From an uncultured Acidobacteriota bacterium (GTDB taxonomy: Bacteria > Acidobacteriota > Thermoanaerobaculia > Gp7-AA8), in assembly GCA_963822445.1 (NCBI GenBank), contig CAWGHO010000002.1, positions 1 through 64,000 on the forward strand: a stretch of 64,000 nt of DNA, given 5' to 3'. Both the position numbers and the translations under genes were made by a program. The notes beneath the pieces were generated by a model. It saw nothing but the letters and a program-made list of their open reading frames with translations. It did not search any database and was not told where the DNA came from. Below, piece by piece: positions 21,526 to 28,449 of the stretch (position 1 is its first letter; each line of letters begins with the position of its first letter).

Positions 21526-22278
21526 GTGGCCGGCCGCGCCGTCATCGAGATCCGCGACCTCGTCAAGATCTACCACCTCGGCGAGGTCGACGTCCGCGCG
21601 CTCGACGGCGTGGACATCTCCGTCGAGGAAGGGGAGTTCATCGCCATCATGGGACCGTCCGGCTCGGGCAAGTCGACGCTGATGAACATCATCGGCTGCC
21701 TCGACCGCCCCACCAGCGGGACGTACGTGCTCGACGGCGAGGACGTCTCCCAACTGAGCCGCGACAATCGCGCGCTGATCCGCAACGCGAAGATCGGCTT
21801 CGTCTTTCAGAGCTTCAACCTCCTAGCGCGAACGTCGGCGACGGAGAACGTCGAATTACCGTTGCTCTACGGCGATCTCGGATTCACCCGCAAGCAGCGC
21901 CACGACGCCGCGCGCGGAGCGCTGCATCGCGTCGGTCTGCAGGGACGCGAAGGCAATTACCCCTCGCAGTTGTCGGGCGGCCAGCAACAGCGCGTGGCCA
22001 TCGCCCGCGCGCTCGTGACCAATCCCGCGATCGTCCTCGCCGACGAGCCGACCGGCAATCTCGACTCCCGCACGTCGATCGAGATCATGGGCATCTTTCA
22101 GGACCTCAACGACAGCGGCAAGACCATCGTGCTGATCACCCACGAGCAGGACATCGCCCAGCACGCCAAACGCGTCGTCCACGTGCGCGACGGAAAGATT
22201 CAGCAGGACGAGTTCATTCAGCAGCACAGGATCGAGCGCGGCGGGATTCCCGCGCCCGTGGCACCGGTGGCGAGATGA
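21526..22278 (+). CDS. MacB/LolD-type ABC ATP-binding protein
   Basis: [24 protein letters not shown] and [10 protein letters not shown] motifs. Confidence 0.95.
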
Positions 22279-22366
22279 AGTCTCAGAGTCTCAGAGTCGC
22301 AGAGTCTCAAAGACCCGTCCGCCCGTCCTTTCTCTGCGACTTTGCGACTCTGAGACTCTGAGACTT
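22278..22366. repeat. Octamer-unit palindromic element, family C, copy 2
   Basis: AGTCTCAG AGTCTCAG AGTCGCAG AGTCTCAA ... CTGCGACT TTGCGACT CTGAGACT CTGAGACT. Confidence 0.85.
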
Positions 22367-22369
22367 CCT

Positions 22370-23614
<1,245 letters not shown>

Positions 23615-23747
23615 AGCCGAAAAGGCCGTCCCGTGCCCAAAACTTGCGTCCGCATCGGACTCTCCGGCCCGTACGACCGGCTCTGCAACCTCAGGTAATT
23701 TTCGGGCGAGTGTTTTCCCACGGCGGGATGTCAGGCATACTCGATGT

Positions 23748-24068
23748 ATGACCTCAGCAACTCACCACGCATCACCGACGTTCCTGCTTCAGTTCCAAGA
23801 AACGCACGTTGCGTCTAGCGATCGCACGGTATTGTGCGGAACTGAGACACGCACGGAGACGATCGAATCCTCTGATCAAGATCCGCGTGGGCTCGCACCT
23901 ATCCTCATGGCTACGCGCACCGCTACGCAGACCATCGAAACCGCAGATCAAGATCCACAGATCCTCGCTGCGACTGCGAGTCATACGCTCACGATCGAGG
24001 AACCGGACCAAGATCCCAGTCCGCGGAGCTACTACGCGATCCCTCGACCACCATGCTCCTCGTCCTGA
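23748..24068 (+). CDS. Graspetide (ATP-grasp RiPP) precursor, 106 aa, three core repeats
   Basis: Leader with PTFLLQFQE; cores TETRTETIESSDQD, TRTATQTIETADQD and TASHTLTIEEPDQD; overlaps the ATP-grasp gene start. Confidence 0.88.
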   Translation: MTSATHHASPTFLLQFQETHVASSDRTVLCGTETRTETIESSDQDPRGLAPILMATRTATQTIETADQDPQILAATASHTLTIEEPDQDPSPRSYYAIPRPPCSSS

Positions 24069-24997
24069 CGTCGAGCGGGGATGTCACAGCCGACTATCTG
24101 ACGGCGAAGTTGGCAACGGCGGGTGTTCCATTTGCGCGCCTCGACACGGATACCTGTGCAGCAACAGCGCGTGTTTCGTACGACGACGGCGATGTGCGGT
24201 TGACACTCGACGACAGCAGTTGGCGGCCGGCGGACATCCATACCATCTGGTTGCGTCGCCCCAAGGAAATTCTGATCGACATCGGCGGCGACGAGACAGA
24301 ACGCGTGCACGTTGCGAACGAATGGAGCGAAGCAATTGAGGGATTCCTTGCCCACGTCCCACCCGATCGGTGGATGAATCATCCGACTCGGAACGTTCTC
24401 GCGTCGCATAAGCTTGAGCAACTCAGTCGAGCGAGAGCTGCGGGTCTCATTGTTCCACCGACACTAGTGACGCAGAATCGCGAAGAGCTTGATCGTTTCT
24501 GGACCGCACAGAACGGTCGCGTCGTCGCTAAACCGCTGGCGTCCGGCTATCTCGAGCGCCCGAACGGTACGGTGACGTCGATCTACACGAACCGTGTTTT
24601 CTCGCGACATCTGGACGCGGCGCCCCTGGGTTCTTGCCCGACCCTTTTTCAAGCGGAAGTCACGAAGGATCTCGACGTTCGCGTGACCTTTGTAGACGAG
24701 CGAATTACGGCTGTCGGCATGCGGCGTCATGACAACGGCGCGCAGATTGTCGATATCCGGCGCGACAACATGCAGCACGTCCAATACGTACCGATGACGA
24801 TGCCGGATTCCGTCGCCATGGCGCTCCGTGCTGTCATCGAGTCCTATGGGCTCCGCTTCGCGGCGGTGGATTTCGCAATCACGCCCGAGGGAGAGTGGAT
24901 CTTCTTCGAGATCAACCCCAACGGCCAGTGGGCGTGGACCGACCTAGCAGGAGCGACCGCGATCTGGCAGGACTTTGTTCATGCGTTTGCTGCGTAA
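24053..24997 (+). CDS. MvdC/MvdD-like ATP-grasp peptide macrocyclase
   Basis: [32 protein letters not shown]...GL.VPPTLVT, VAKPL, PTLFQ, DVRVT and [12 protein letters not shown] motifs. Confidence 0.92.
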
Positions 24998-25769
24998 CTT
25001 CATAGGCGAGGTGTTCAATGTTTGCTTTTGGCTCGCCCTTCGCCTTTGCGGCATCGAGTGTTCGCTGCGGTCAGTCCGAGAGCGTCGTTACGACAAAGCT
25101 CCGCCGGTCCCCGATCTCGCGTCGTTGAAACCGACGGATACGCTCAATGAGGCGGCGAAGAGTGAACTTGCCAGCGCAGAGAATCGACGAAAGATCGTCG
25201 ATGACAAGGCGCGTATGTTGCTGACGCTCGTCGGACTACTCATCCCTGTGACGGTCACCCTCGCCTCGCGCATAGCGTGGCCATCAATGATTACTCTTCC
25301 GCTTGTGTGCTTTCTCTTCTCCGCGCTGCTTCTGATTGGATATCTCGGCGTCGGGAAGGGAATGCACTTGACGGTGAGTGTCGAGGAGGTTGGGTATGAC
25401 GAGGATCGCCTCACTCGACAGGTGATCCACGACACGTTGTTGAGTGCGAGGGCCACGGAACAGGCGACAGATTTCCTTGTGGATGTGTATCGCGCAGGAC
25501 TGCGTGCGTTGTTTGCTGGGCTTCTTTGTGTCGTAGCGATAGCCGTGACCGCCTACATGCTTCCAAACGAGGCTACCGCGCGTGTGATCCAGCAACTTCG
25601 CAGTGATCCTGCACTTCTCCGCGAACTGCGTGGCCCGCAAGGGCCGCCCGGCCCTGCGGGCCCTAAGGGTCCGCAGGGCGAACCCGGCAAGCCGGGGCCG
25701 CCCGGGCCTCCGGGATCTCCCGGACGTGCAGGCGCGGCGACAACGACAGGATCAGGATCGGCGCGCTAA
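24981..25769 (+). CDS. Membrane protein with a C-terminal collagen-like (Gly-X-Y)11 tail
   Basis: Three to four hydrophobic helices; [33 protein letters not shown]; overlaps the ATP-grasp stop. Confidence 0.75.
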
Positions 25770-25815
25770 CGTCGGCGTCACTAACGAGTTTAGTGTGCCG
25801 CGGAGCGCACGTAGG

Positions 25816-25883
25816 CTTCGGGTTCTATCCGGCGCGGAAGGCATCGCGCCTCGATCCGATCGACGCCCTGCGCTACGAGTAAA
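25816..25883 (+). repeat. 68-bp direct repeat, right copy
   Basis: Duplicate of 23548-23615; contains the stop codon of the convergent TauE/SafE gene. Confidence 0.95.
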
Positions 25884-26586
25884 ACAACATCGAGACGCCG
25901 AGCGCGATCAGCAGCCCGGACACGACGCGCTTGAACGTGCTCTCGTCGAGGCGGCCCAGAATCATTCGCCCGGCGATGGTGCCGATCACGACGCCGATCG
26001 TGGCCACGAGCACCACGGGCCAGATCGCGAGCAGCTCGCGGCCGTGCGTGAAGAGATAAACCGGAACGCGCATGCCGTCGACGAAGAGCGCCACCGCCGT
26101 GGCCGTGGCGATGAACGCGTCCTTCGGCACATTGAAGCCCATCATCGCGCCGGCGCGGATGCCGCCCTGATTTCCAACCAGCCCGCCGAGCATCCCCGAC
26201 AGCGCGCCCGCGAACCACGCCGTGCGCCGGCCGAAGCGAATGGTGATCCCGATGAGGCCCGTGACTCCGGCGAAAATCAACAATGCCGCGAGCAAGTACG
26301 CGAGCGAGCGCCCGCCCATCCGCGAATGCAGGAGCGCGCCGGTGAGGCCGCCGATCGCGCTCGGCAGTCCGAAGGAAAGCAGCACCCGGCGATCGAGACT
26401 CTTCCGCAGAAACCAGAATCGCAACGCCGTGCCGATGACATGCGGAATCGCCACCGCGGCCACGGCGACCTTCATCCCGTAACGCACCGCCAGAAGCGGC
26501 GTGATGACGCTGCCGATGCCGAAGCCGGCAAGCGACGCCACGATCCCGCCGAATGCGGACGCGATCGCGACGATCAGCTCGAACAT
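25873..26586 (-). CDS. TauE/SafE (sulfite exporter) family membrane protein
   Basis: GIVASLAGFGIG and GMLGGLVGNQGG repeats; about eight TM helices. Confidence 0.85.
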   Translation of the reverse strand: MFELIVAIASAFGGIVASLAGFGIGSVITPLLAVRYGMKVAVAAVAIPHVIGTALRFWFLRKSLDRRVLLSFGLPSAIGGLTGALLHSRMGGRSLAYLLAALLIFAGVTGLIGITIRFGRRTAWFAGALSGMLGGLVGNQGGIRAGAMMGFNVPKDAFIATATAVALFVDGMRVPVYLFTHGRELLAIWPVVLVATIGVVIGTIAGRMILGRLDESTFKRVVSGLLIALGVSMLFYS

Positions 26587-27066: not shown

Positions 27067-28449
27067 ATGCGTGGAACTCATGGATGGGCTGAAGTGTCTC
27101 GCGAGCGCAAGCGCGAGATCATCGACGCCATCGTCGCCAACAAGCCGACGCGCGGGCCGGTGCATGCCGAGCTCGACCTCACCGACCGCTGCAACGTGGC
27201 CTGCTACTTCTGCAACCAGCAGGACTTGCGGACCAAGGAGTCGATTCCTCTGCCCCGCCTCACCGACCTCATCGATGAGCTGGCGGAAACGGGACTCAAA
27301 TCGGTGCGCCTCTCCGGCGGCGGCGACCCTCTGTTTCACAAGGACGTCCTGAACGTCATCGATCACCTCGCCACGCGCAACGTCATCGTCGACAACGTCA
27401 CCACCAATGGCGTGGCCATGACCACGGAAGTCGCCACCCGCCTGGTGAAGGGCAACGCCCGCGAGGTGATCTTCTCGCTCAACGCGGCCGATCCCACCGA
27501 TTACGCCCGGATGATGAAGGTCAAGCCGGCGCTGTTCGACAAGGTCGTCGAGAACATCAAGAACCTCATCGCCATCCGCGGCGACTCGATGTATCCGTCG
27601 GTGGTCATCCAGTTTCTGATCGACCGCTACAACGTGGACCGCATCGTCGACATGTACGAGCTGGCCCGCTCCATCGGCCCCGATCGCGCGGCCATCAACG
27701 CCGTTCTGGAGATCCCAATGGAGCGCATCGATCGCGACCGTCTCCTCGGACCCGACGATCGTTACGCCGCCGAAGCGCAGGTGGAAGAAGTCATCCGCCG
27801 CGACAAAGACGTGGGCATGCTGCAGATCGATTTCGCCATCGCCGGCTGGAACGAGATGCTCACCGCCGTCCGCGAGCGCGTCGGCTCGCCGGCGCACAAC
27901 ATGTACCCGATCGCCAAGTCGTTCAAGAACGAGAACGGCGGCTGCTTCTTCGCCTGGTACACCGCGGCCATCACCGGTAACGGCGACATCCGCCCCTGCT
28001 GCCTCCTCCTGAATCCGAACGTGAAGCCCCTCGGCAACATCAACGACGGCGGCAAGTTCGCCGATCACTGGAACGGCCCCGAGTTCGGGAAGATGCGCGA
28101 CGAGATGCGCGAAGTGATGCTGCGCAAGAACAAGATGCAGTACTCGCCGACGAAGTTCCAGGTCATCAAGGAGCCGTGCGTGACCGACGGCCTTTGCTGG
28201 CTGAAGAACATGTACTTCCGCGCGGACGAAGAGTTCTACCAGGAGCTCGACGAGAAGCTGACCGAGGCCCGGAAGAAAGAGATCCGCTTCGTCACCGGCA
28301 ACAACGTCCAGCGCAAGCGGGCCGCGGAGCTCTTCATCCAGGAGCATCCCAAGCTGAAGCGCTCCTGGGACTGGCTGCGCGAGAGCAGCCGCCCGGCGCG
28401 GGTCTTCCTGAAGTCGAAGCTCGGCGTAGATCTGACCGACGCGGTGTAG
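27067..28449 (+). CDS. Radical SAM protein with SPASM/Twitch-like domain
   Basis: CNVACYFC (CxxxCxxC), SGGGDP, TTNG and C-terminal GCFFAW...GDIRPCC...LGNI. Confidence 0.88.
   Translation: MRGTHGWAEVSRERKREIIDAIVANKPTRGPVHAELDLTDRCNVACYFCNQQDLRTKESIPLPRLTDLIDELAETGLKSVRLSGGGDPLFHKDVLNVIDHLATRNVIVDNVTTNGVAMTTEVATRLVKGNAREVIFSLNAADPTDYARMMKVKPALFDKVVENIKNLIAIRGDSMYPSVVIQFLIDRYNVDRIVDMYELARSIGPDRAAINAVLEIPMERIDRDRLLGPDDRYAAEAQVEEVIRRDKDVGMLQIDFAIAGWNEMLTAVRERVGSPAHNMYPIAKSFKNENGGCFFAWYTAAITGNGDIRPCCLLLNPNVKPLGNINDGGKFADHWNGPEFGKMRDEMREVMLRKNKMQYSPTKFQVIKEPCVTDGLCWLKNMYFRADEEFYQELDEKLTEARKKEIRFVTGNNVQRKRAAELFIQEHPKLKRSWDWLRESSRPARVFLKSKLGVDLTDAV

Follow-up and report, generated by a model that had tools for sequence, protein, structure and literature searches.

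What does a graspetide cassette make, and what is it for, when its ligase is accompanied by a precursor gene and by the gene of a small membrane protein? This question is raised by a 2.2-kb islet in an uncultured Acidobacteriota bacterium (assembly GCA_963822445.1, contig CAWGHO010000002.1, positions 1 to 64,000), and in this study the whole of this 64,000-nt stretch, hereafter the window, was analysed. The islet holds three overlapping genes (2.0 kb) between two 68-bp direct repeats, all on the forward strand (+): a precursor gene (23748..24068), an ATP-grasp ligase gene (24053..24997) and the gene of a membrane protein, here called ORF3 (open reading frame 3; 24981..25769). We found that the precursor and the ligase constitute a Group 6 graspetide of a short-loop sub-type, the Group 6 numbering being reportedly that of Lee et al. 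2020. A preliminary description of this DNA, made from its letters and open reading frames (ORFs), had recognised the precursor and the ligase and had seen no protease or methyltransferase in the islet, which holds, while the third gene and the 68-bp direct repeat escaped it.

Precursor, ligase and predicted product

The precursor gene runs from an ATG at 23748 to its stop at 24068 and encodes 106 aa. As had been described, this frame is hidden in a longer one, a 180-aa ORF that opens with TTG (23526-24068). We considered the longer frame as the true precursor and rejected it, as the precursors of relatives begin 7-10 residues before the leader Pro; the ATG start fits the leader length in relatives, and the extra N-terminal part of the TTG frame, which extends back into the macB-like gene upstream, counts against it as well. 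The precursor consists of a leader of 31 aa, three cores and a C-terminal tail. The leader carries, at aa 10-18 (23775..23801), a motif of the Phhx(1,2)h type as defined in section 5 of PMC8939145 (Makarova et al.), which is conserved in relatives and is the predicted recognition site of the ligase. The cores, of 14 aa apiece, occupy aa 32-45 (23841..23882), 56-69 (23913..23954) and 76-89 (23973..24014), and they are preceded by the linkers VLCG, ILMA and ILAA, respectively, and each directly followed by Pro; leader motif, linkers and repeats were all found as previously described. In the tail, a motif of the Y/F-A-I-P-R type (aa 95-100, 24030..24047) has a similar counterpart in 34 of 84 related precursor ORFs, and the last four residues overlap the start of the ligase.

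The three cores share the consensus T-x-[T/S]-x-T-x-x-x-E-x-x-D-x-D, in which position 3 is Thr, Thr and Ser, and position 2 is E, R and A, in cores 1, 2 and 3, respectively; the pattern TxxxTxTIExxDQD given earlier had the correct spacing but omitted position 3. The cores had been said to lack Lys, and no Lys occurs across the entire 106-aa precursor. We observed three copies of [TS]x[TS]x[TS]xxxExxDxD in the precursor, and in 100,000 shuffles of its residues a single copy arose 49 times and two copies never. Likewise, a six-frame search of the 6.0-Mb genome for T-x-[TS]-x-T-xxx-E-xx-D-x-D returned the precursor only. The five nearest loci contain 15 cores that end in DQD, and these show Thr/Ser at positions 1, 3 and 5 in 15/15, with Thr at position 3 in 15/15, as well as Thr/Ser at position 7 in 13/15 and at position 2 in 1/15; the three donors and the three acceptors are all kept in each of the 15. 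When all 74 DQD-ending blocks were counted, Thr/Ser occupied positions 1, 3, 5, 7 and 2 in 55, 66, 66, 37 and 14 of them, respectively.

The second gene encodes an ATP-grasp macrocyclase (graspetide synthetase) of 314 aa, and its overlap with the precursor gene, noted before, amounts to 16 nt. The ligase matches Pfam PF21068 above the cut-off, and the best NCBIfam model is TIGR04187 (233 bits, E 4e-69, below the cut-off of 350), ahead of those of MvdC and MvdD. It was aligned to 5IG8 at E 1.8e-37 with the catalytic positions in register, and K120, K160, R210, D234/R236, D273, E286 and N288 are invariant in 28 close relatives. The locus therefore displays the two features by which graspetides were recognised here, namely a short precursor with a leader motif and donors ahead of acceptors, and an adjacent ligase of the MvdC/MvdD/TIGR04187 subfamily with an intact active site. 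Homologues of the ligase number 804 at E<=1e-40, and the nearest named relatives belong to Thermoanaerobaculia. A second, distant ATP-grasp ligase (25-28% identity) was noticed at G000:C1:469276-470157 (loci L106 and L110:2777-3715), where no small precursor was seen; it lies directly downstream of the gene for a 419-aa protein resembling an astacin-type metalloprotease with a repetitive tail.

With regard to the published groups, in which the preliminary description had meant the ligase to be placed, the assignment is to Group 6. Eight ligase homologues were looked up, and the five that had accessions were checked against supplementary file 2 of PMC13097080 (the 2026 RODEO catalogue), which lists 5/5 as Group 6. 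The BLAST identity of our ligase to these five is 50-56%, and EFI-style alignment scores, calculated as our own approximation of the EFI score and not as a rerun of the network, reach 83-98, so that the ligase clusters with the Group 6 synthetases at the sequence similarity network (SSN) threshold of 70 used in that catalogue. Among the relatives, MCM2314035.1 (locus L001) and HXI12026.1 accompany three-core precursors with the same leader type, core spacing and C-terminal tail, and both are listed in Group 6. The core pattern of the group, taken from group-labelled sequences and not from a published consensus, consists of T-x-T-x-T donors and E-x-x-D-x-D acceptors, and it is found here with Ser at position 3 of core 3. 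In the commonest Group 6 spacing the last donor Thr and the Glu are separated by four residues, and here by three; we did not treat the four-residue spacing as defining the group, because three are also found in some or all cores of members listed there.

One such member is the precursor of Chryseobacterium aquaticum subsp. greenlandense, the source species of OEP-6-1 (strain C. greenlandense UMB34, PMC7327761): the loop comprises four residues in two cores of its listed precursor and three, the spacing observed here, in the last. One Group 6 example in Fig. S2B of Makarova et al. (PMC8939145) mixes short and long cores as well. In our set of 60 rows (59 related loci and the window, near-duplicates included), 29 have short cores only, 28 long cores only, one both and two neither. 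On a quick tree of the ligases the short and long labels are clustered, with 3 changes as against 19.7 in shuffles, and the window falls in a short-core clade of six rows (support 99) that includes L001. Since relatives are listed in Group 6, some precursors mix both lengths and the labels cluster on the tree, the short loop is a common sub-type within the catalogued group. The precursor resembles OEP6-1 and Group 6 in its multicore form, in its T-x-T-x-T donors and E-x-x-D-x-D acceptors, in its Lys-free cores and in the three nested links predicted here. It differs in that the loop from T5 to E9 is short, with three residues, in all three cores, as against four in the majority of cores of most Bacteroidota members, and in that the leader is much shorter, the cores end in DQDP and the C-terminal tail is conserved. 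No characterised precursor with short cores only was found in the literature searched, and earlier primary work may already describe the short core. Two other memberships were tried and rejected: Group 4, as the cores end in E-x-x-D-x-D and not in the E-x-x-D-x-x-E of two listed Sphingobacteriales precursors of that group, and Group 3 (thuringinin), whose core pattern needs donor Thr at position 2 (ten residues before the first acceptor Asp) and at position 5. We also noticed that long-core loci (L002-L004, L006, L018, L028, L030, L031 and L050) often carry two tandem precursor genes upstream of the ligase, single-core and then multicore, while the short-core loci nearest to the window have one precursor gene each.

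As for the product, the ligase would bind the leader motif of the precursor and use ATP to phosphorylate the carboxylate of a core Asp or Glu, which a Thr or Ser hydroxyl would then attack, as in the mechanism given in the PsnB preprint. In the simplest nested pairing, positions 5-9, 3-12 and 1-14 of each core would be joined, and each of the three repeats would be stapled into a hairpin held by three nested esters. The predicted esters are T36-E40, T34-D43 and T32-D45 in core 1, with connectivity drawn from OEP6-1, and by the same reasoning T60-E64, T58-D67 and T56-D69 in core 2 and T80-E84, S78-D87 and T76-D89 in core 3. From what is established for the family, we regard this course of leader binding, phosphorylation and joining, with up to nine dehydrations and no amides, as highly probable, and three nested esters per core, put forward in the preliminary description with Thr as the donor and read here as Thr/Ser-to-E/D/D, stay the best prediction. 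The graspetide identity and chemistry of the cassette taken together appear quite probable to us, and this judgement does not extend to its role.

The membrane protein and the role of the cassette

ORF3 is a membrane protein of 262 aa with three predicted transmembrane helices, a weak likeness to PycTM and a collagen-like C-terminal tail, in which the predicted protein has 12 Gly-X-Y triplets (25632..25739); its gene overlaps the stop of the ligase gene by 17 nt. An ORF3 homologue lies downstream of the ligase in 53 of the 66 related loci (out of 86 fetched) with 900 nt or more of downstream sequence, and also in 5/5 plasmid or phage loci examined (of 69 records matched), a Leptospira phage among them. 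With a profile of ORF3, 479 representatives were retrieved at E<=1e-10, and the Gly-X-Y tail is present in 83 of the 144 new family members listed. Two proteins, P0389 and P0417, are natural ligase-ORF3 fusions, which makes the link between ligase and ORF3 a functional one; ORF3 likely acts with the ligase or with the peptide. The Leptospira phage record (L120, KF114876.1 59111-60699) holds a related precursor-ligase-membrane protein cassette, the precursor of which serves as a Group 5 example in Fig. S2B of PMC8939145.

Concerning the nature of this protein, PycTM (PF18967/DUF5706), the membrane effector of Pycsar systems, has three transmembrane helices in the same order, shares a D-x-K-A motif entering helix 1 and shows reciprocal weak profile similarity to ORF3. 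The three PycTM models of PADLOC match 16, 16 and 13 of 51 ORF3 family members at E<=0.1 (best 6.8e-6), and any other model matches one at most. With a PycTM profile constructed for this study, 12 family members scored higher than any of the genome's 913 other membrane ORFs; with the reverse profile, made from ORF3, 36 of 120 closely related PycTM proteins outscored the best unrelated ORF. The Atlas feature score for PycTM, taken as a lead only, is 0.88. Several results weigh against the kinship. ORF3 itself meets a PycTM model at E 0.03, far below the family cut-off; with the ORF3 profile, two unrelated ORFs score above the genome's own PycTM protein; and hhalign gives the ORF3 family and PycTM a probability of 54-84%. 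Pfam offered no convincing family for the 51 members and none for ORF3; PF18967 was absent from the 25 families listed of the 47 obtained for these members, and its curated cut-off was not reached. The predicted model of ORF3 (pLDDT 92) found no Foldseek match at E<=0.001, a fold search of the PDB gave generic helical bundles only, with a best VIA Z of 8.5, and a sequence-profile search of the PDB returned one chance-level match. On balance we are inclined, with some reserve, towards a distant kinship between ORF3 and PycTM. ORF3 differs from PycTM in its extra N-terminal helix and its collagen tail, and the islet from a Pycsar system in that no pyrimidine cyclase gene occurs among its three genes, the partner of ORF3 being the ligase of a RiPP (a peptide made by ribosomes and modified after translation). 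A stand-alone PycTM (PF18967) gene above the cut-off was observed at G000:C1:427288-427599 (L112:1330-1851), where the ORFs listed for the 3.3-kb locus include no cyclase, and genome G118 has a similar stand-alone copy.

A similar membrane protein has been noted before. Makarova et al. report uncharacterised membrane proteins specific to thuringinin loci (their cluster 18), which they suggest to be transporters since the loci are without other transport genes. In position and nature, which is as far as the comparison goes, cluster 18 matches ORF3, and with the ORF3 profile the downstream gene was recovered in four loci with Group 5/cluster 13-type precursors and in one broken cyanobacterial locus. 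The account of cluster 18 given there proposes transport, and its text on these proteins mentions neither the PycTM likeness nor the collagen tail; a search of the neighbourhood table of that study by organism name yielded nothing.

The neighbourhoods of the related cassettes were surveyed in 47 loci, which were left from the 86 after removal of 4 near-duplicates and 35 with less than 1.5 kb of flank, and 145 flank ORFs were picked from them by a heuristic. Against PADLOC, E<=1e-10 was reached by 36 of these and E<=1e-40 by 24; three of the flank matches are generic (two sigma-54 activators and one reverse transcriptase). A defence-like neighbour was found in 21/47 loci, and in 12 of the 21 this neighbour is part of a named system: restriction-modification, Shedu, BrxL, Thoeris with Avs, Dpd, E1/JAB, Pycsar or SEFIR. 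Integrases, transposases and resolvases were also among the flank ORFs. At L067:5425-7944 (near-duplicate L066), a Pycsar-like set of two PycC-like genes and a cNMP-binding TIR effector comes directly after a short-core cassette. Caspase-domain (Peptidase C14) genes adjoin the cassette in 3/47 loci (L017:5822-6865, L030:1395-2342 and L034:634-2157) and may encode a target or a processing protease, and divergently upstream of the nearest related cassette, at L007:1-987 (-), there is a protease-like ORF with His/Asp spacing recalling trypsin and no Pfam match.

From these observations we propose, tentatively and as a matter of speculation, that the cassette is a cell-associated module for conflict or for defence against phages, with ORF3 under the control of the stapled peptide. 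The peptide would remain in the cell, holding the PycTM-like protein shut or triggering it, and ORF3 would damage the membrane of an infected cell. A precedent is provided by the lanthiphages (bioRxiv 10.1101/2024.06.26.600839), which are likewise RiPP clusters in defence islands and are reported there to protect against phages; they differ in their lanthipeptide chemistry and their occurrence in Actinobacteria, and in the literature searched such protection is not shown for any graspetide. PMC11118758, in the part that concerns this subject, links RiPPs in general to phage defence, graspetide cassettes not included. Our literature search for a connection of graspetides with PycTM or with phage defence found none, and earlier work may already describe the membrane gene. 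The wider claim, that Group 6 and related thuringinin-branch cassettes are a widespread three-gene anti-phage system in which a stapled, intracellular multicore peptide controls a PycTM-like effector, and are not clusters for secreted inhibitors, is to us rather doubtful.

Several findings count against a defensive role. A defence-like neighbour was absent from 26/47 loci, and the copy in the window sits among housekeeping genes. No PADLOC model matches the ligase or the precursor of the window. The control, consisting of 87 of 108 ORFs from the window, the macB loci of relatives and other ATP-grasp loci (two from the unpublished genome G002), gave 11 PADLOC matches, all generic, and 0 at E<=1e-40, and it is unmatched for mobile DNA; repeated MacB and TauE orthologues, an FG-GAP insert, PycTM proteins and ligases had been left out of it. 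Because the control is unmatched in this respect, the flank result shows that the cassettes travel in variable, defence-rich regions and not that they defend.

The classical role is nearly as likely as the anti-phage or conflict role. Here the tricyclic cores would be released by host proteases as secreted protease inhibitors, with ORF3 as an exporter or membrane scaffold. All characterised graspetides are reported as protease inhibitors in the sources consulted, which also tells against a defence function; cluster 18 proteins are suggested transporters, as said above; the ligase-ORF3 fusion fits a scaffold; and the small residue ahead of the cores, which is Gly in 108 of 150, might mark a site of cleavage. 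However, a three-helix protein appears small to us for a peptide exporter, the precursor contains no GG pair, and neither a C39 peptidase nor an ABC exporter was found among the 145 flank ORFs. Secretion of an inhibitor would, moreover, leave the defence-rich neighbourhoods and the PycTM likeness unexplained.

Alternative rings in the cores

The pairing 5-9, 3-12 and 1-14 proposed above would give rings of 18, 26 and 22 atoms by our own count, compared with 21, 26 and 22 in a long core. Its model, OEP6-1, is depicted as a stem-loop with three nested cross-links (PMC12291112, Fig. 1 legend). Some points weigh against the assignment and the pairing alike. The SSN Group 6 of the catalogue is broad and holds unlike precursors; the likeness to OEP6-1 is drawn from the description of three nested links in a figure legend; Makarova et al. 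(PMC8939145) warn that motifs predict connectivity poorly in the thuringinin branch; and the Thr at core position 7 permits another register.

Thuringinin itself shows what else may happen, since it has two esters per repeat according to the same figure legend, though its first core shares positions 1, 5, 9, 12 and 14. If the cores were modified in this manner, two esters per repeat and up to six dehydrations would be expected, with one acceptor free. The first thuringinin core aligns without gaps at T5, T7, I8, E9, D12 and D14, and Makarova et al. merge groups 3, 5 and 6 in one precursor cluster (cluster 13 for thuringinin). Nevertheless, thuringinin belongs to Group 3, an SSN group separate from Group 6, with which our ligase falls; its donors stand at core positions 2 and 5 whereas those observed here stand at 1, 3 and 5; and the complete set of three donors and three acceptors in 15/15 nearest cores is at odds with a free acceptor. 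We consider a thuringinin-like modification improbable.

The preliminary description had suggested that the topology may be new, having compared the cores with thuringinin (Group 3) and plesiocin (Group 2) and left Group 6 aside. A new ring topology that defines a new graspetide group is very improbable, and we rejected it on the placement of relatives in the Group 6 catalogue. In its favour, the ligases of all-short-core loci (29 of the 60 rows) cluster on the quick tree, the window belongs to a well-supported short-core clade there, no characterised all-short precursor was found, and the conserved Thr7 could pair differently. On the other hand, one member of that six-row clade is already catalogued as Group 6, relatives with the same spacing are listed there, and one and the same Group 6 precursor may hold short and long cores, as does that of the OEP6-1 species. 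The loop that is one residue shorter alters the size of the inner ring (18 versus 21 atoms) and not the topology. It had been stated beforehand that identity of the core with that of an already characterised group would remove its novelty; this is largely the case, save that the inner loop has one residue fewer than in the commonest Group 6 core.

The insertion and what the cassette may mean

The 2.2-kb islet was acquired by horizontal transfer, and its insertion restores the end of its target, a macB-like gene. The left 68-bp direct repeat (23548..23615) comprises the last 21 codons and the stop of the macB-like ABC permease gene at 22370-23614 (MacB_PCD, FtsX) and is identical to the right copy at 67/68 positions; the right copy (25816..25883) adjoins a tauE-like gene and forms the right boundary of the islet. 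In the relative genome G019 the site is empty: the repeat is present once, and the tauE-like gene comes immediately after the macB stop. No ligase of more than 32% identity was detected in 34 other genomes of the genus, a tally that includes the unpublished G002. The GC content of the islet is 59.9% compared with about 64% in the genome, and at third codon positions it is 0.59-0.68 compared with 0.90-0.91 in two flanking genes. It is because of the repeat, the empty site, the lack of a closer ligase in the 34 genomes and these compositional shifts that we conclude horizontal insertion. The macB-tauE junction is variable, since two other genomes hold other insertions there: an 814-aa FG-GAP-like gene in G007 (L108, G007:C71:55800-60800) and about 150 bp of palindromic sequence in G008 (L109, G008:C83:21300-23600).

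Two neighbours were examined as parts of the cluster. The macAB-like transporter was rejected, as the islet took it as its target and none of 86 related loci contains a macB match. The radical SAM/SPASM gene at 27067-28449 was not counted as a tailoring enzyme because it lies outside the repeat and has an orthologue at the macB loci of relatives; nothing was found that connects it with the graspetide. Between the ABC ATPase gene and the macB-like permease gene, at 22277-22367 of the window, we also observed a 37-bp inverted repeat (92% complementary, with a 17-nt gap) made of 8-bp tandem units. That the islet is the decayed and no longer expressed remnant of a larger mobile element is hardly credible: the repeats enclose no integrase and 23560-25900 contains no match to a sigma-70-type promoter, but the promoter scan covered this one type only, the three frames are intact and of full length and overlap as in relatives, and the islet is co-oriented with the macAB-like operon upstream.

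For the chemistry of graspetides, this locus is a modest addition, a Group 6 precursor with short loops throughout that is useful for understanding how one ligase family sets ring size, and we regard the conserved membrane-protein gene as the more interesting part of the locus than the topology of the cores. The islet offers a compact, repeat-bounded three-gene case in which the natural role of the multicore graspetides of the thuringinin branch, and the purpose of their membrane protein, may be studied. If the proposed control of ORF3 by the stapled peptide is true, it would give a graspetide a role in defence for the first time, with a RiPP as the switch of an immune effector, and if the cassette protects against phages, several hundred similar clusters, judging from the 479 representatives of ORF3, would become immune systems.

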